The position numbers and the translations under genes are program-made. A stretch of 13,358 nucleotides of DNA, from positions 1 through 13,358 of the forward strand of contig JAWOFX010000025.1 of NCBI GenBank assembly GCA_046497275.1. The letters are read 5' to 3'. Every line of letters starts with the position of its first letter. Positions within the stretch are counted from its first letter, which is position 1. This document shows, one piece after another, positions 2,058 to 13,358 of the stretch. This DNA comes from Promethearchaeia archaeon. GTDB lineage: Archaea; Asgardarchaeota; Lokiarchaeia; Sigyniarchaeales; SOKP01. The notes beneath the pieces were generated by a model. That model ran no database searches. It was not told the DNA's origin and saw only the letters and a list, made by a program, of their open reading frames with translations.

Positions 2058-3056
2058 ATGGAAAAAACAGTTTTAAATTTGAAGTACTCCTTTTTGCATG
2101 AATCGCAAATGATTTCTCTCTATAAAATATTTTCACGAAAAGCAGCCCAAGAAGGATATAATTTAATATCAAACTTTTTTGAAGATATATCAATTAATAA
2201 ACAACAAAATGCATATTGGACTTACATGATACTGCAGAAATTAGATGATCTACAAGAAATCGAAGAATCTTCCGTAAAATTCGAAGATATTCCCTCAATA
2301 GGAACAACTTCAGAAAATCTTGCAACTGCAGTGAAGATTGAAGATTATGAGTGGAGAATAATGTATGATGATTTTGCAAAGACTGCCAGAGAAGAGGGTT
2401 TGGATGAGATTGCATCTCGACTTCAACTTATTTCAAATAGAGAGCGTAAATTCTTCGAGCGTTTTAAAATCTTTTCTAGTCTATTTTCTGATAAAAAATT
2501 AATGAGAAATCAGAGTATTGTGGTGTGGGAATGTCAAGGATGCGGATTTCAAATAGCAAAAGAAAACTTACCAAAAGATTGGGTATGTCCTTCATGTGGG
2601 CATCTTCAAACTTATTTTGAAAAAAAGTTTTTAAATTACACTACTGGAGATAGAAATGTATGGGTATGTATGGAGTGCGGTGAAGAGGTAAATATAGAAA
2701 ATTTACCAAGAGATTGGAATTGTCCGAATTGCGGTAAACCAAAGGAATATTTCCGAAGGAAAAAATCAGATAATGTGAAAGATGACATCTTCAGCTTACC
2801 AAAATCAGAATGGGAATGTATGGAATGTGGAAATACTGCGATTGCAATGGATGAGTTACCAGATGATTGGAAATGTATAAATTGTGGAGCATCAAAAGCA
2901 TATTTTAGGCGAATATCAACTAAACCCAGTAAAACGACCTATACGTTCAAAAAGCGAGAAAAAGCGATTTGGTATTGTCCTTCTTGTGGGAAAGAGGTAG
3001 AAATAGATCTGCCTCCTAATTGGAAATGTCCTACTTGTGGATTCTCAGTATACTAA
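2058..3056 (+). CDS. Rubrerythrin-like ferritin-fold domain (degenerate diiron site) fused to four rubredoxin-like CxxC...CxxC modules
   Basis: aa 1-150 align by eye to rubrerythrin (ESQ...Y..F...A..EG, T.ENL, E..E...MY..FA..AREEG..EIA). aa 157-332 contain four WxCxxCG-x(11-13)-W-x-CxxCG modules bearing the rubredoxin LPx(D/N)WxC motif. Confidence 0.85.
   Translation: MEKTVLNLKYSFLHESQMISLYKIFSRKAAQEGYNLISNFFEDISINKQQNAYWTYMILQKLDDLQEIEESSVKFEDIPSIGTTSENLATAVKIEDYEWRIMYDDFAKTAREEGLDEIASRLQLISNRERKFFERFKIFSSLFSDKKLMRNQSIVVWECQGCGFQIAKENLPKDWVCPSCGHLQTYFEKKFLNYTTGDRNVWVCMECGEEVNIENLPRDWNCPNCGKPKEYFRRKKSDNVKDDIFSLPKSEWECMECGNTAIAMDELPDDWKCINCGASKAYFRRISTKPSKTTYTFKKREKAIWYCPSCGKEVEIDLPPNWKCPTCGFSVY
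2526..3053 (+). repeat. Four protein-level tandem repeats (rubredoxin-like modules) at about 2526-2627, 2661-2762, 2811-2912 and 2970-3053
   Basis: Cys pairs at C159/162-C177/180, C204/207-C222/225, C254/257-C273/276 and C307/310-C324/327. Diverged at DNA level. Confidence 0.9.
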
Positions 3057-3126
3057 CTTTTTAAAACTATTTCAATTATTTTAATAATCTCATTAATTAT
3101 TAATTTTTTAGTTAATTGAAACAATT

Positions 3127-4323
3127 ATGTCTTTTGAAAAAGAAATTGAACTCGCTAAAGATCATTTCGCACAAATAGTTAAAGAACAATTAGAACGAAT
3201 TAAACGCTTAAAGGAAGAAGGAGATTGGATTGATTATTCTAAGTTAGAGCCCATAATTATTGGAATTATTGGAGGGGATGGAATCGGCCCGGAAATCTCT
3301 CGCTATGCTAAGAAAGTTCTTGAATTTTTGCTAAGAAAGGAGATAAAGAACAATAAGATTGAATTAAGGACTATAGAAGGATTAACTATTGAAAATAGAG
3401 CAAAATTAATGGAAGCTGTACCTAAGAACGTGCTGGAAGTGATTAAAAAGTGTCATGTATTATTAAAAGGTCCAACTACTACACCTCGAAAGGGAGATAA
3501 ATGGCCGAATATAGAAAGTGCGAATGTAGCTTTAAGACGGACGCTCGATTTATTTGCAAATATTAGACCTGTAAGAGTTCCAGAGAAAAATATAGACTGG
3601 TTATTTTTTAGAGAAAATACTGAAGGTGCCTATATATTAGGTTCAAAAGGCATAAATATAACAGAAGATTTAGCAATCGATTTTAAAGCAATTACCACAC
3701 AAGGTGCCGAACGTATCCTAAAATTAGCATTCGAATATGCTGAAAAAAATAATATAGATAAAGTAACAGTCGTCACAAAAGCGAATGTTATCAAAACATC
3801 AGATGGTAAATTCTTATCAATTGCTGAAAAAATCGCTCAAGAATATCCCAATATAGAGGTAGATGATTGGTATATTGATATTATTACTGCAAAACTTATT
3901 GATCCATCTCGTCAAAGTCAATTCAAAGTCTTTGTTGCCCCTAATTTATATGGAGATATTATCACTGATGAAGCTGCTCAAATGCAAGGAGGTGTGGGTA
4001 CTGCAGGGAGTGTTAATCTTGGTAAACGATATGCCATGTTTGAGGCAATTCACGGATCCGCACTAAGAATGGTAGAAGAAGGACGATCTCAATATGCAGA
4101 TCCTTCAAGTTTGCTACGCGCTGTTGTAATGATGTTGGATCATATTGGCTTTGAAAAGAATGCAAAACACCTTGAGATGGCTCTTGATATCTGCGGTACA
4201 TATGAGAAAAAGATTTTTCCAACGGGACGATCAAATGGAGCAACTGGGGAAGACTATGTGAAATATATAATGAATACACTTCAAGACTCTAAGTTGGAAC
4301 AAAAATGGAAATCTTTTCAATAA
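3127..4323 (+). CDS. Isocitrate/isopropylmalate (beta-decarboxylating) dehydrogenase family; probably isocitrate or homoisocitrate dehydrogenase
   Basis: GDGIGPEI, LKGPTTTP, SANVALRR.LDLFANIRPV (the Ser/Asn pair is IDH/HICDH-like, not the IPMDH Glu-Leu-Leu type), RENTEGAY, TKANVIK.SDG.F, PNLYGDIITD, FEAIHGSA. Confidence 0.9.
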   Translation: MSFEKEIELAKDHFAQIVKEQLERIKRLKEEGDWIDYSKLEPIIIGIIGGDGIGPEISRYAKKVLEFLLRKEIKNNKIELRTIEGLTIENRAKLMEAVPKNVLEVIKKCHVLLKGPTTTPRKGDKWPNIESANVALRRTLDLFANIRPVRVPEKNIDWLFFRENTEGAYILGSKGINITEDLAIDFKAITTQGAERILKLAFEYAEKNNIDKVTVVTKANVIKTSDGKFLSIAEKIAQEYPNIEVDDWYIDIITAKLIDPSRQSQFKVFVAPNLYGDIITDEAAQMQGGVGTAGSVNLGKRYAMFEAIHGSALRMVEEGRSQYADPSSLLRAVVMMLDHIGFEKNAKHLEMALDICGTYEKKIFPTGRSNGATGEDYVKYIMNTLQDSKLEQKWKSFQ

Positions 4324-4572: not shown

Positions 4573-5880
4573 ATGAATATTCCAATCCTAATAATCAGTT
4601 TTATCTTTTTTGCATTAATCATCATCAGTTATACTATTGAGAGACTCGACTTTGTAGCCATCTCTCTGCTTTCTAGCTTTATCGCCGCTACCATCACAGG
4701 GGCAACCTTGGGTATAGGAATTAATGCTTTTGTTGGTCATATCGAATTTGAAGCAATAATAATTATCTTAAGCATGAGTATTATCACCAAAATCGCTGAA
4801 GACTCGAATATTTTAGAATATCTTGCGGTTAAATTATTTCAAATCTCTCGTGGAAGCCAGAGAGTGTTTTTCTATCTGATTTGTATAATTACTACTCTAC
4901 TCGCAGCAATAATCACCGATGTTGTGGTAGTGCTCATTATTGCTCCCGTGGTTATCCGTCTTTGCCATTTTTTAAAGATCCGTTCCGGTACATATTTGAT
5001 GGGCATGACAATATGTATTAACATAGGATCAATCATTACTCCCTTCTCAAGCGGAGAAAATATTATAATATCGACTGAATTTGGTTTGAATACGCTCTAT
5101 TTTATTCAGAACTATTGGGTTTTTTCATTTCTTTTATTATTTTTAACTGTTTTTTTATTAGATCGATTTTATCTCAGTAAAGAACCGAAAATCGAAGAGC
5201 AACAAAAACAATTTGTTATACAATTAATCAACAGCGATGTTGTAATTAAAAATAAGAAAATGTTTTATATTAATAGCGTCGGGATCATTATTACCATCGC
5301 TCTTTTCGCGATCCTTCCATCATTATATTTAACAGCTCTTATTTCTGCCATGATACTCGTTCTCCTTAATAAAGGATTCACTAAAAAGACAATGAGTGAG
5401 CTCTTAAGAGACGTAGAGTGGGAAATAATCTTCTTTTTTATTTCATTATATATTGTGGTTGGGTGCTTATTGGAAGCGGGATTCCAAGATATATTTGAAG
5501 GGATTCCTTTTAATCTTGTAAATCCCATTCTCTTGAGTTTTCTTCTACTCCTAATTGTTAGTGGCATGAGTGGCGTCATCGCTAACACCCCGACTGCCTT
5601 AATCTTTATTTACATCATTCAAACTTTGATTAATAGTTTTGGATTCCTTCCAGTTCCTCTATATTTTGCTTTAATAATAGGAATAAATCTTGGTGGCAAT
5701 TTTCTGGTTCAAGGCGCCGCATGCGATATGATGACGCTTAAAATCGCTCAAGATTCAGGGGTTACAAATCTTGATTATAAACGCTTAGCCAAAAATGGCG
5801 CATTATTCGCACTCATACACATCGGAGCATCTATTATATATTTATTATTCATATATCTTTTTTCAATGATTTTCAGTTAA
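4573..5880 (+). CDS. ArsB/NhaD/SLC13 (ion-transporter superfamily) permease, paralog 1
   Basis: Highly hydrophobic with about 12 TM segments. Motifs ..D.VV.VLI..PV, NIGS.ITP....ENII, DVEWE.IFFF..LY..VG.LLEAG, .ANTP, G.NLGGN....GA. In-frame TAA just upstream fixes the start. Substrate cannot be determined. Confidence 0.88.
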   Translation: MNIPILIISFIFFALIIISYTIERLDFVAISLLSSFIAATITGATLGIGINAFVGHIEFEAIIIILSMSIITKIAEDSNILEYLAVKLFQISRGSQRVFFYLICIITTLLAAIITDVVVVLIIAPVVIRLCHFLKIRSGTYLMGMTICINIGSIITPFSSGENIIISTEFGLNTLYFIQNYWVFSFLLLFLTVFLLDRFYLSKEPKIEEQQKQFVIQLINSDVVIKNKKMFYINSVGIIITIALFAILPSLYLTALISAMILVLLNKGFTKKTMSELLRDVEWEIIFFFISLYIVVGCLLEAGFQDIFEGIPFNLVNPILLSFLLLLIVSGMSGVIANTPTALIFIYIIQTLINSFGFLPVPLYFALIIGINLGGNFLVQGAACDMMTLKIAQDSGVTNLDYKRLAKNGALFALIHIGASIIYLLFIYLFSMIFS

Positions 5881-6183
5881 TTTACTAAACAATTTATAAT
5901 ATGAATTTAAACAATTTTGAAAAAATTTTAAGATATATTATACCGAATTTTTGGATTATATGAGAATTATTAATAAGATGGAGATATTTGAAATCCTCCA
6001 ATTATATTAAATAAAAAACACCAAAAAGATAAAATTAATATTTTTATTATTTTTGGCGATTTCAGATTATTTTTAAAAAGAAATCAGGAAACTTAGCTAT
6101 GGAATATTATCCCATTGCTTATTAGGGTCATTTGATATGATAAATAATGCTTAGTTTTAATCAATTATAATGAATAAACATAA

Positions 6184-6190
6184 GAGGTGA
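6184..6190 (+). promoter_or_regulatory. Strong Shine-Dalgarno site GAGGTGA
   Basis: Lies 7 nt before the ATG at 6198. Confidence 0.7.
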
Positions 6191-6197
6191 AAGATTT

Positions 6198-6998
6198 ATG
6201 CCTAGAGAGAAAATAAACAATATGGAATTATATTATGAAACATACGGAGAAGGAGATCCTTTGGTTATGATTATGGGCTTAAGCGCTAATATTGATTGGT
6301 GGCCTCCAACATTTTTAGATATTATGAAAAAAAACTTTGAGATAATAGTTTTCGATAATCGGGATGCGGGTAGGTCAGAAAATGTTGAGGAAAATTATGA
6401 ATTGAAAGATTTAGCGATTGATACTGTTGGGCTTATGGATAAACTAAATATTAAAAAAGCACATATTTTAGGCATTAGTATGGGAGGAATGATTGCGCAA
6501 GAGCTAGTATTAAACTATCCAGAACGAGTAAATAAATTAGTTTTAGCATCTACTAATTGTGGTAATCCAAAATCTATTTTGCCATCCAAAAGAGTATTAG
6601 CAGATCTAACTAAAGATAGAGAGGGACGCTCTGAAAAAGAAATCATTGAGGATTTTATAGATTTACTTTATACAGATAAATTTATAGAGGAAAATCCAGA
6701 TTATATAGAAAATGCAAAAAGAAGGATGATGAAAGCACCAATTAAACCAGAGGCTTATCAACGCCAAATTAAAGCAATACTAACATTTAATTCAGGGAGA
6801 AGGCTAAAAAACATAAAAGCTCCAACATTAGTTATACATGGAAAAGACGATATTCTATTACCTCCCAAAAACGCCGAAATTATAGCTGATGCTATTCCAA
6901 ATGCAAAATTAGAATATTTTGAAAAAAGTGGACATACTTTATTCTCCCATCAACCCGAAAAAGTAGGTCAGACTGTGCTAAATTTCTTAAAGAATTAG
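6198..6998 (+). CDS. Alpha/beta-fold hydrolase (enol-lactonase/esterase-like), paralog 1
   Basis: LYYE..GEG.P, FDNRDAGRS, nucleophile elbow GISMGG (Ser94), PERV.KLVL, PTLVIHG..D (Asp218), SGH (His246). Catalytic triad intact. Confidence 0.95.
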   Translation: MPREKINNMELYYETYGEGDPLVMIMGLSANIDWWPPTFLDIMKKNFEIIVFDNRDAGRSENVEENYELKDLAIDTVGLMDKLNIKKAHILGISMGGMIAQELVLNYPERVNKLVLASTNCGNPKSILPSKRVLADLTKDREGRSEKEIIEDFIDLLYTDKFIEENPDYIENAKRRMMKAPIKPEAYQRQIKAILTFNSGRRLKNIKAPTLVIHGKDDILLPPKNAEIIADAIPNAKLEYFEKSGHTLFSHQPEKVGQTVLNFLKN

Positions 6999-9286: not shown

Positions 9287-10087
9287 ATGCCAAAACAAAA
9301 AATTAATGATACCGAATTATATTATGAGATTCATGGAGAAGGATACCCCGTAGTAATGATTATGGGATTGGGAGCCAATATTTACTGGTGGACACCAGAA
9401 TTTCTGGAACCTATGAAAAATAATTTTCAAACAATTATTTTTGACAATCGAGATGCCGGTCGATCTGATCACGCAAATGAGCAATATCAAATAGCAGATC
9501 TTGCTACTGATACTATTAAACTCATGGATATGTTAAATATTGATAAAGCTCATATCTTAGGGATTAGTATGGGCGGGATGATTGCCCAAGAAGTCACCTT
9601 AAATTATCCTGAAAGAGTAAACAAGCTCGTTCTATGTTCTACTAATTGCGGTGGTGCGAAATCTATTCTCCCCTCTCAAGATTTATTAGCTCAATTAACA
9701 CAGGATCGAGGAGAACTTTCTCAAAAAGAAATAATTGAGAAAACTATACCTCTTCTATATACTAATGAATTTATCGATAAGAATCCAGAATATATCGAAC
9801 GAACAAAAGAGCAATTGATGAAAGCTCCAATACAACCGGAAGCATATGAACGACAAATTCAGTCCTTATTAAGTTTTAACACGGGAAGAAAGCTTAAAAA
9901 AATAGAACATCAAACATTAGTAATACATGGAAAAAAAGATATCTTAGTTCCCCCCCAAAATGGCCAAATCTTAACAGATTTAATAACAAATGCTACATTG
10001 AAATATTTTGAAAAAAGCGCGCATGCTATTTTTTCCCATGAACCAGAGAAAGTAACTACCACGGTTCTAGATTTTCTAAAAGAATAG
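9287..10087 (+). CDS. Alpha/beta-fold hydrolase, paralog 2
   Basis: Same length (266 aa) and colinear with 6198..6998. My manual ungapped count is 177/266 identical. GISMGG, HGKKD and SAH triad intact. Confidence 0.95.
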   Translation: MPKQKINDTELYYEIHGEGYPVVMIMGLGANIYWWTPEFLEPMKNNFQTIIFDNRDAGRSDHANEQYQIADLATDTIKLMDMLNIDKAHILGISMGGMIAQEVTLNYPERVNKLVLCSTNCGGAKSILPSQDLLAQLTQDRGELSQKEIIEKTIPLLYTNEFIDKNPEYIERTKEQLMKAPIQPEAYERQIQSLLSFNTGRKLKKIEHQTLVIHGKKDILVPPQNGQILTDLITNATLKYFEKSAHAIFSHEPEKVTTTVLDFLKE

Positions 10088-10121
10088 AAATTCTCCATAA
10101 ATTTTTTTAAATTCTTATTTT

Positions 10122-11426
10122 TTAACCAAAAATGAGACTTAAAATAAGTGTATAGCCTAATGAGAGGATGATGTGGATAATAGCGAATGTAGCACCAACT
10201 TTTAATAATCTTTTATAATTAAAGTTCTCTACACCTGCATCTTGAGCAATCTTAAGAGTCATTACATCACAAGCAGCCCCTTGTGGAATTAAATTCCCTC
10301 CTAAGTTAATCCCAATAATAAAGGCGAAGTATATGGGTAAGCTGGGAAATCCCTCTTTTGTAAGGGTTTCAATTATCGGGATAAACACTAAAGCTGTAGG
10401 TGTATTTGCAACAAAACCACTTATTAAACTTACAGCAATTAAAATGATTAAAGCAATCAAGATTGGATCTACTGCTGTAAATGGAATCATTTCGAATATT
10501 TCTTTAAATCCAGCTTGTAATAGACATCCAATGACAATATAAAGCGAAATGAAAAAAAAAATTATTTCCCATTCCACATCTTTAAGAAGAACTGCCGCCT
10601 TTTTCTTGGTATAGCGTTTATTAATAATTACTAAAATAAAAGCTGATAAGACTGCTGTTAGATAAAGGAGAGGAAGAATAGCAAAAAAAGCGATGGTGAT
10701 CATAATTGCGATACTATTAAAATAAAACATTTTTTTATTTGCGACCATAACATCTGCATCTATTAAATCAAGGACGAATCTTTTTTGCTGTTCTTCGATC
10801 TTTGGTTCTTTACTAAGATAAAATCTATCAATAAGAAATATTGTGATAAGAAGTAAGGTAAATGAGAAGATCCAGTAATTCTGAATAAAATAGAGAGTAT
10901 CCAATCCAAACGCAGTCGATATAATAATATTCTCACCAGAACTAAAAGGAGTGATGATTGATCCAATGTTTATAGATATCGTCATTCCAAGCAAATACGT
11001 TCCTGAGCGAATCTTTAGAAATCGGCATAATCTGATAACCACTGGTCCTAGAATAAGAACAACCACAACATCCGTGATGATTGCCGCAAGTAGGGTAGTG
11101 ATTATACAAATCAAATAAAAAAAGACTCTTTGGCTTCCACGAGAGATTTTAAAAAGTTTCACTGCAAGATATTCTAAAATATTCGAGTCTTGCGCAATTT
11201 TGGTGATAATACTCATGCTTAAAATTACTAGAATTGCTTCAAATTCGATCGATTGTAGAAAATCGTTAATAGTTGTACCCATAAGAATTCCCGTCACAGT
11301 TGCGGCAGTAAAACTCAATACTATAGAAATTGCTACGAAATCAATATTTTCTTGGGTATAACTAATAATTATTAGCGCGAAAATGATAAATACAAATATT
11401 AACAAGGGGATATTGAGAGTCGCCAT
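10122..11426 (-). CDS. ArsB/NhaD/SLC13 (ion-transporter superfamily) permease, paralog 2
   Basis: Colinear with 4573..5880 and roughly two-thirds or more identical by eye, including a 32-aa identical run ISRGSQ...VVVVLI. Confidence 0.88.
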   Translation of the reverse strand: MATLNIPLLIFVFIIFALIIISYTQENIDFVAISIVLSFTAATVTGILMGTTINDFLQSIEFEAILVILSMSIITKIAQDSNILEYLAVKLFKISRGSQRVFFYLICIITTLLAAIITDVVVVLILGPVVIRLCRFLKIRSGTYLLGMTISINIGSIITPFSSGENIIISTAFGLDTLYFIQNYWIFSFTLLLITIFLIDRFYLSKEPKIEEQQKRFVLDLIDADVMVANKKMFYFNSIAIMITIAFFAILPLLYLTAVLSAFILVIINKRYTKKKAAVLLKDVEWEIIFFFISLYIVIGCLLQAGFKEIFEMIPFTAVDPILIALIILIAVSLISGFVANTPTALVFIPIIETLTKEGFPSLPIYFAFIIGINLGGNLIPQGAACDVMTLKIAQDAGVENFNYKRLLKVGATFAIIHIILSLGYTLILSLIFG

Positions 11427-11517: not shown

Positions 11518-12354
11518 TTAATCTAATAAGATAAGAGATAAAAGAAATTTATCAAGATTCAATTCTTTCAAGAGAACGAGATTATTGATCAGATAATTAA
11601 ATAGATTTTCTTTCATAAAATATTTTAAACTTTCCCTTCCTCCTAAAGAATTTTTTAAAATACCCACGCTATTTTTCAATAATGTTATCAGATATCTCTC
11701 AACAAGCATCATATCAGCTGCATTTGGATTGATATTTATTATATTAAATCCTGATTCTGGGGAAAAACTGATTTTTTGTAGTTCACTATCCTTTTCAAAA
11801 TCAAGATTATCACGAAATTCATGGTACATTTTATCCATCTTTTCAATTAGTTTTCCTTTCTGATCTATTTGAGAAACTATATTCATTATGATGTTAAGAA
11901 TCTGTTGAAAAATACCCAATATATCGAAGAATTCAGCGATAGTGGTTATATTCTCTGCTTGTTTCCACTGATGATAATATTCATCTATAGTTTGTTTAAA
12001 TGGTGCAAAAAGCTCTGTATTTCCATCCCAATTATTTTTATTATAATTTTTTTTCACTACGTATTCTTGTAAAAAAGATTTTTTAATGATGTTGAGACGT
12101 GCTCTTATTATCTCTGCACTTACGTCTTTATTGTCTGCTGCGATAAAAAGTAAATTAGACTCATTATCCTCAAGATATACCCACCTTAAACCTCCCATTT
12201 CTATACTTTCAATTCCTTGTTTGAATTCAAAGACTGTAAACTGATTTAAGGCAGTTAAAAGCCCTGATACTAAATCTTCATTAACCATTAAATCTTGATA
12301 AGGCTGATAAAGAAGGGTTACGCCACTTTCAGAATCTAAAATCCATATATTCAT
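11518..12354 (-). CDS. Longin-like domain protein (N-terminal ~130 aa) with an uncharacterised helical C-terminal domain
   Basis: Pattern beta-beta (IWILDSESGVTLLY), alpha (EDLVSGLLTALNQF), beta-beta-beta (IESIEMGGLRWVY, LLFIAAD), alpha (IIRARLNIIKKSFLQEY), then WDGN..LF..F...IDE. This matches longin/sedlin/AP-sigma-like domains common in Asgard archaea. Recognised by motif memory, not by search. Confidence 0.7.
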   Translation of the reverse strand: MNIWILDSESGVTLLYQPYQDLMVNEDLVSGLLTALNQFTVFEFKQGIESIEMGGLRWVYLEDNESNLLFIAADNKDVSAEIIRARLNIIKKSFLQEYVVKKNYNKNNWDGNTELFAPFKQTIDEYYHQWKQAENITTIAEFFDILGIFQQILNIIMNIVSQIDQKGKLIEKMDKMYHEFRDNLDFEKDSELQKISFSPESGFNIININPNAADMMLVERYLITLLKNSVGILKNSLGGRESLKYFMKENLFNYLINNLVLLKELNLDKFLLSLILLD

Positions 12355-12439: not shown

Positions 12440-12928
12440 TCATTCTAATAAATCTTTAATATCATTATTTTTCAGATAATTTTGAAGATTGCGTAAAATC
12501 TGAGACAATTTATTTCTTAAGATAAGTTCGCTAGCATCTCCGATTAAATTTAAAAATTCATTATTTAACTTAAACGTATGTATAAATACGCCTACTTTTG
12601 CTTTCTTTGTTCCTATATTTTTAATTCTAAGTCTTCCTTCTAATTTATCAATATCTTTATTGTTTCTCACATTCAACTCAATCAAATGACCCTTATCTGG
12701 CACTTCACCTTGATCTATCATTACTAATTCTCCACTCATCTCAATTGGAATATTGAGAACATCTACTTCATCATAAATATCACTATGAAAGACGTTTGGT
12801 GCTGTAAATTCTATTGTTATTTTCTTCACGGGACTAATTTTTTCCCAGATAGTAGGTTTATAAATCGCTTCTAAAAGACTTTCTTTATCACTATCAACTT
12901 CTATGACTTTAGATATTAATTTTGCCAC
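12440..12928 (-). CDS. Hypothetical protein, probable SRPBCC/START/CoxG-like helix-grip fold
   Basis: GTG start. N-terminal beta-alpha-alpha pattern ISKVIEVDSDKESLLEAIYKPTIWEKISP resembles the SRPBCC signature, followed by several beta-like segments and a long amphipathic C-terminal helix (SELILRNKLSQILRNLQNYLK). ORF is well supported; fold is moderately supported. Confidence 0.55.
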   Translation of the reverse strand: MAKLISKVIEVDSDKESLLEAIYKPTIWEKISPVKKITIEFTAPNVFHSDIYDEVDVLNIPIEMSGELVMIDQGEVPDKGHLIELNVRNNKDIDKLEGRLRIKNIGTKKAKVGVFIHTFKLNNEFLNLIGDASELILRNKLSQILRNLQNYLKNNDIKDLLE

Positions 12929-13163
12929 TTTTTCTCATCATCGTAAGTTTTTGTAGAATAACCTACCATTTAATAAATTTTTAATTATTTCATATTAAGA
13001 TTTGCTCTTTCTATCAATTATTAGAATAAAAAATAATCTAAGTTTTATGCCTCAGTCTTCCTCAATATGAAATCATTCAAAATGTCATATAAGATGAATT
13101 ATCATCACAGGCAAATACAATATGAATGAATAAAGCAATTATATAAAAAGAATCATAGAAATT

Positions 13164-13358
13164 TTATATGTTTTTCTCTCGAAATAATTTACTATCTTCA
13201 ATTTTGTTTTTTGCGCCACATTTTGGACATTGCCATTCTGTATTGCTAATCTTGATAGAATTTATACACTCATCACATACAGAAATGTCGCAAATACAAT
13301 AAAAGAGAGTATCGACTTCATGTTCGAAATCTTTTTTGCAAATGTAACAGTTGGTAGG
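13164..13358 (-). CDS. Partial CDS (start lies outside the window) encoding a C4C4 RING-type zinc finger; not in the ORF track
   Basis: Manual translation from 13358: PTNCYICKKDFEHEVDTLFYCICDISVCDECINSIKISNTEWQCPKCGAKNKIEDSKLFREKNI*, with TAA at 13166-13164. Eight Cys spaced C-x2-C-x13-C-x-C-x4-C-x2-C-x12-C-x2-C. Confidence 0.88.
   Translation of the reverse strand, partial: PTNCYICKKDFEHEVDTLFYCICDISVCDECINSIKISNTEWQCPKCGAKNKIEDSKLFREKNI

Follow-up and report, generated by a model that had tools for sequence, protein, structure and literature searches.

What kind of zinc finger is encoded at the right edge of the window, i.e. of the 13,358 nucleotides of DNA analyzed here, and does it serve the ubiquitin system of its archaeal host? 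At this edge, a minus-strand reading frame with eight cysteines runs off the sequence. On the basis of the cysteine spacing (2, 13, 1, 4, 2, 12, 2), an earlier note had assigned the frame to the Not4/CNOT4 type of C4C4 RING and had proposed a small or C-terminal prokaryotic RING, possibly an E3-like partner of an Asgard ubiquitin-like system.

The gene and its family

The frame is open on the minus strand from 13358 to 13164. A re-reading of the sequence reproduced the eight cysteines (codon starts at 13349, 13340, 13298, 13292, 13277, 13268, 13229, and 13220, minus strand) and their spacing, as well as the 17 residues between the last cysteine and the stop, which is a TAA. No start codon lies in the window, because the window is the entire contig C50 of this genome (3.85 Mb, 30% GC). 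The final 191 bases of C50 are identical to the initial 191 bases of contig C119, and 191 is the overlap length that recurs across the contigs of this assembly. The extension called for by the earlier note is thus at hand: C119 (L003:192-212, outside the window) provides the first seven codons including an ATG, which lead to a protein of 71 residues; residues 8-71 and the stop are encoded by 13164..13358 (minus). A 71-residue protein with 91% identity occurs in two other assemblies, where the genes on either side of the join are also the same. Based on the contig overlap and these copies, the protein is complete and consists of a single domain. It is therefore small, as had been proposed; with the start codon found, it is not the C-terminal domain of a larger protein.

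The eight-cysteine core (13218..13349, minus) comprises C11, C14, C28, C30, C35, C38, C51, and C54 in full-length numbering; Y27, D31, W49, and P52 are near-invariant within it. It is followed by the conserved C-terminal motif S/T-x-L-F/I-R/K (residues 63-67; 13179..13193, minus), which is the hallmark of the family beyond the zinc core. A relaxed eight-cysteine pattern occurred four times in the genome, two of these occurrences being the finger gene on the two overlapping contigs, and not once in eight shuffled genomes. Two partial matches of 21-25 residues, which resulted from a single-sequence scan of the genome contigs, were treated as noise.

The finger belongs to a genuine but unannotated family, whose RING-like members stand alone and occur in one order of Lokiarchaeia. 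Of 151 Lokiarchaeia genomes, 118 gave strong profile matches (E ≤5e-18), and every one of these belongs to this order; besides the source genome, they were 110 of 126 genomes of family f1, 3 of 13 of f2, the single one of f3, and all three of f4. The profile matched neither the seven genomes from other orders of the class nor any of the 225 Asgard genomes that were sampled beyond this order. True members are separated from weak second matches by a gap in E-values from 5e-18 to 3e-6. In relatives, such second matches have E-values of 1e-4 to 1e-6; those that were read proved to be transposase or other zinc-ribbon domains. The finger is 55-74 residues long and single-copy almost everywhere; an exhaustive search of cluster representatives gave no fused form. 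Homologues with a database name are listed as hypothetical proteins of Lokiarchaeota/Promethearchaeota; in the ESM Atlas, the corresponding cluster of 194 members has been labelled automatically as "putative RING-type domain-containing protein". No account of the family was found in the literature accessible to us, mostly outside subscription journals.

Across the family, the median pN is 0.31 and the median pS 0.78, which signals purifying selection. The eight cysteines are invariant in alignment A1, and ligand 4 is a cysteine in 112 of 114 members. The two members lacking the fourth cysteine (L031:1489-1692 and L035:2983-3195) possess a phenylalanine or an aspartate instead; here, the invariant aspartate next to the lost cysteine may be the substitute ligand. 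The finger gene is covered by RNA-library contigs of two studies, from which strand and expression level are not readable and in which DNA carry-over is uncontrolled. The stretch 12952-13073 is bridged by no RNA-library contig, which in itself does not prove separate transcripts.

Predicted fold and candidate role

The AlphaFold model of the protein (pLDDT 87) consists of a hairpin (25-35, with strands 25-28 and 32-35), a helix following ligand 6 (36-42), a second hairpin (48-59), and a short helix (60-63). A second model, computed for a distant member with a C-x2-C arrangement of ligands 3 and 4, has the same layout. For both models, Foldseek ranked the RINGs of TRIM23, TRIM2, and TRIM32 first (TM 0.54-0.58, E 0.006-0.05). 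VIA-align placed the Slx1 RING on top in both cases (Z 6.1 and 6.4, rmsd 2.6 over about 60 residues), followed by the RINGs of TRAF3, CTLH, Nse1, and FANCL; the VIN3 PHD and ZZ domains were within about 1-2 Z, and RING/U-box chains dominated the VIA lists. Note that all structural scores are middling, with Z-values of at most 6.4 and Foldseek E-values above 0.001. In the ESM Atlas, structure neighbours other than the family itself and bacterial look-alikes are RING E3s. The look-alikes are several Thermodesulfobacteriota clusters of hypothetical proteins with 68-78 residues (features 0.92; TM 0.63-0.66); none of them was recognized among the matches of the finger sequence searches.

Taken as predictions, the single compact models speak for a binuclear finger of RING-like shape rather than for tandem zinc ribbons, and they favour RING over PHD/FYVE. 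The models are metal-free; cross-brace zinc binding by the eight cysteines is what we infer from their end-to-end alignment with RINGs. With respect to the proposed prokaryotic C4C4 RING, the predicted fold is in agreement, and the profile of the C-x2-C members retains some PHD/FYVE_2 character.

The residues expected to contact an E2 are present, as the earlier note had observed. The position before Cys2 (I13) is occupied by I/V/L in 88 of 114 members and by polar or small residues in 26; the position four residues after Cys6 (I42) is V/I/L in 97, and proline follows Cys7 (P52) in 112. The glycine in place of the linchpin arginine after the last cysteine is a feature of this copy and not the norm of the family: among 114 members, lysine is most common (59), followed by asparagine (13), glycine (12), histidine (11), and arginine (4), such that K/R/H is found in 74. 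In RNF38, lysine is the next-best linchpin after arginine (PMC12326332), and at least half of the yeast and human RINGs have no arginine at this position (PMC7667886). The helix (residues 36-42) is short and contains no tryptophan. The best-kept non-cysteine residues are Y27, D31, W49, and L65 with the SxLFR tail; these are not the usual E2-contact positions and, judged by their conservation, suggest a fold or a partner surface peculiar to the family.

A search of the genome gave the ubiquitin components that the earlier note had suggested to look for: a ubiquitin-like gene (ending with GG plus one residue), ThiF/E1-like genes, and one catalytic E2 (HPN, catalytic cysteine), which retains the PF and TP(S/A) loops. 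At least three proteins of the genome exceed the RING-H2 cut-off. An E2 is found in 149 of 151 Lokiarchaeia genomes; in several genera retaining it no finger was found, and consequently the finger cannot be the sole E3. No ubiquitin-system gene adjoins the finger in any neighbourhood examined. A predicted complex of the RING with its cognate E2 (genome G001) scored 0.13 at a mark of 0.32, which is evidence neither way. The downstream neighbour, a SRPBCC/START-like protein of 162 residues (12440..12928, minus), is syntenic in f1 only and is therefore probably no functional part. The same restriction to f1 applies to the second downstream neighbour (11518..12354, minus), a protein of 278 residues with no Pfam match, whose N-terminus may be longin-like. 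In f4, a flavoprotein gene and radA are found close to the finger gene; neighbours vary elsewhere. An operon with the downstream genes was rejected due to the gap of 235 bases to the next gene and the different neighbours in f2, f3, and f4.

Several other observations were made in these genomes. The E2 gene (G000:C79 ~2872-3390, minus; L047:1455-1520) contains a frame-shifting insert of 32 bases that does not occur in orthologues. It fits a bulge-helix-bulge intron, the removal of which restores the conserved HVEPP reading; in the MFE fold the intron hairpin is present, but with a different 4-bp helix (z -0.5). The E2 of 169 residues appears to start at an ATT behind AAGGTGA here (L047 ~1870-1890) and in several relatives (L057, L063, L064, L073), in others at an ATG. 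The relatives (L055-L073) possess two E2 types, one of 169 residues with the PF loop and one of 175 residues without the phenylalanine, which adjoins an E1-like gene; the source genome yielded only the 169-residue type. A protein of 578 residues (G000:C45:13457-15190; L048) combines UBC-like and RWD domains with a C-terminal Cys/His cluster, a layout recalling FANCL. Two vWA-like proteins have C-terminal RING-like domains (G000:C44:126-1247 and C66:6930-8048); the former presumably resembles Ssl1/p44, and a similar vWA gene is located two genes from the finger gene in the f3 genome. In the window, two genes are duplicated at 4573-6998 and 9287-11426, namely a transporter (copies 73% identical and on opposite strands) and an alpha/beta hydrolase (copies 67% identical), with a membrane endonuclease/phosphatase-like gene between the copies; 2058-3056 encodes rubrerythrin, then four rubredoxin-like knuckles.

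We favour the reading, at a probability of roughly 0.45, that the protein is a putative minimal RING of the cell's own ubiquitin system, partnering the E2 or another RING. In this mechanism, the eight cysteines would bind two zinc ions in cross-brace order; I13, the aliphatic I42, and P52 would constitute the E2-docking groove, and the residue after Cys8, mostly lysine, would act as a second-rate linchpin. As there is no substrate-binding domain, the probable task of the SxLFR tail is to pair the finger with a second copy of itself, with another RING, or with an adaptor for substrates, the kind of pairing that RNF4, IAPs, and MDM2 achieve through their C-terminal tails. The Not4-like spacing would be the coincidence of one indel. 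This reading is backed by the leading position of RINGs in Foldseek and of RING/U-box chains in VIA-align, by the zf-RING_4 matches of 27 of 29 members, by the mostly aliphatic or proline E2-contact positions and the basic linchpin of most members, and by the ubiquitin, E1, and E2 genes; moreover, E3 activity has been proven for a small archaeal RING that stands alone (PMC5654768). Arguments against it are the missing adjacency to ubiquitin genes, unlike the operon-encoded srfp, and the other RING proteins of the genome. Further counterarguments are the 26 members with a polar or small residue before Cys2, the short helix without tryptophan, the glycine linchpin of this copy, the conservation off the usual E2-contact positions, the middling scores, and the several E2-keeping genera in which no finger was found. 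In addition, VIA-align ranked the Slx1 RING first, and the role of this RING is to bind Slx4 (PMC4726241).

Only somewhat less probable is a RING-fold adaptor without ligase activity, which would bind one conserved partner via the surface of Y27, D31, W49, and SxLFR. Slx1 is the best structural match of both models, and its C-terminal RING (PDB 4zdt; PMC4726241) shares two hairpins and two helices with the finger; its score is only about 1 Z above those of E3 RINGs. It differs in being C4HC3 and nuclease-fused, and its identity to the finger is only 18-19%. The E2-like surface of the C4C4 RING of TFIIH p44/Ssl1 binds p34 (PMC5737387). This all-cysteine RING is weakly similar in structure to the model of the C-x2-C member (Z 4.3, 27% identity); it is vWA-fused, and no significant sequence match with the finger was found. 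That conservation is highest away from the E2 positions, that no link to ubiquitin operons was seen, and that similar small proteins exist in Thermodesulfobacteriota also agree with an adaptor. On the other hand, the three E2-groove positions are mostly hydrophobic or proline, the linchpin is mostly basic, and no partner gene co-travels with the finger beyond one family.

It is rather doubtful, though conceivable, that the finger stands between RING and PHD/FYVE_2 as an unnamed Asgard type, combining a RING shape, the tryptophan of PHD fingers, and two ligand spacings in a single family, and that it acts as an operon-independent, dimerising all-cysteine E3 constituting a second archaeal E3 class beside the RING-H2 protein srfp.

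Cysteine spacing and other finger classes

Ligands 3 and 4 are arranged as C-x-C in 101 of 114 members, including this protein, and as C-x2-C in the other 13, which are the members of f4 (one labelled Sigynarchaeota) and some f3-like sequences. Both groups are clearly homologous (hhalign probability 99.4). On the gene tree, the spacing state changed at least twice, probably four times; the tree is based on only 69 columns and is unrooted, and for this reason the ancestral spacing is not readable from it.

The profile of the C-x2-C subgroup gave its best matches with the PHD fingers of KMT2D/KMT2C (about 24 bits per finger) and the finger of Slp4. A PHD- or FYVE_2 (Rab-effector)-type finger, recognizing peptides, small GTPases, or membranes, would explain this result, as well as the matches of 19 of 29 members to FYVE_2 and of 8 of 13 to PHD, and the atypical VIN3 PHD at Z 4.9-5.7. 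The motif W-x-C-P-x-C, retained in 112 of 114 members, contains the PHD-type tryptophan two residues ahead of ligand 7; a W-x-C before the last knuckle is common to PHD and FYVE_2 fingers (Slp4, RIM, rabphilin). The FYVE-type C-x2-C-x4-C of ligands 3-5 is found in 13 members of the distant subgroup and not in this protein. We nevertheless regard such a finger as unlikely. Ligand 5 is a cysteine in all members and never a histidine, which deviates from the C4HC3 ligand set of PHD fingers, and there is no basic R(R/K)HHCR patch. Both models, the C-x2-C one included, possess the RING helix after Cys6, and for both Foldseek scored RINGs above PHD and FYVE (TM 0.57-0.66 vs 0.42-0.47). Like the finger, the Slx1 RING is PHD-like by sequence and RING-like by structure; first called PHD on the basis of its sequence, it proved to be a RING (PMC4726241).

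That the finger is an orthologue or a direct ancestor of the eukaryotic Not4/CNOT4 RING is very improbable; this reading, which follows on from the Not4 label of the earlier note, has been largely refuted. The likeness to the Not4 RING (zf-RING_4; PDB 1e4u, 5aie) consists of the eight cysteines, of gap lengths which in f1 and f2 equal those of Not4 save one, and of an end-to-end alignment over the whole core (E 0.006-0.013). In addition, zf-RING_4 was the most frequent Pfam match (27 of 29 members), and a precomputed PF14570 match exists in a few homologues. This protein itself reached 20 bits, which is under the curated cut-off of 27. In the profile comparison, the C-x-C group matched TRIM32, Not4, and RBBP6 weakly, with Not4 below the other two; Not4 sank to rank 14 or lower once distant members joined the profile, and was not among the best 60 matches of the C-x2-C subgroup. 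The spacing of the finger family is labile, and thus the Not4 match rests on one indel. The complete protein of 71 residues contains no RRM, C3H1 finger, or Not1-binding region, nor any other Not4 domain; conversely, the conserved W49 and the SxLFR tail are absent from Not4. The family was not found in the sampled Asgard classes outside Lokiarchaeia. A Not1 search gave no match in the genome and none in any control either. No Not4 chains were among the best 50 matches of any fold search, which is still compatible with this fold.

A pair of consecutive zinc ribbons and a chance frame can both practically be dismissed: the last knuckle (W-x-C-P-x-C-x3-N) weakly matches the RanBP zinc ribbon (E 6e-4), but the model is compact and aligns end to end with RINGs, and more than 100 genomes retain all eight ligands as well as the start and the stop, with the pN and pS values given above.

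Implications

A close precedent is the small RING finger protein (srfp) known from Caldiarchaeum subterraneum and from the ubiquitin operons of Asgard archaea (PMC5654768); it is likewise a short RING that stands alone, and the archaeal genomes in question also encode ubiquitin, E1, and E2. It is an operon-encoded RING-H2 (C3H2C3) requiring I30, Trp58, and Arg69 for activity (PMC5654768), whereas the finger is all-cysteine and encoded outside such operons. Of these residues, the equivalent of I30 is kept in the finger family, W58 is replaced by an aliphatic residue of the helix, and R69 is absent, its place being taken by Lys, Asn, Gly, or His.

As archaeal RING E3s are already established and the family was found in only one order of Lokiarchaeia, the impact is limited; the contribution of this analysis lies in the labile spacing and the linchpin census. 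The spacing of cysteines alone cannot assign a eukaryotic signature protein, since one indel converts a PHD-like into a Not4-like spacing. A finger between RING and PHD/FYVE_2 would, if true, be a living model of the divergence of eukaryotic cross-brace fingers. An adaptor role would mean that RING folds already served non-ligase functions before the eukaryotes. Should the finger prove to be an active E3, a minimal all-cysteine ligase would exist in Lokiarchaea outside the ubiquitin operons; the range of pre-eukaryotic E3s would then extend past RING-H2, and a protein of 71 residues would be easy to assay.
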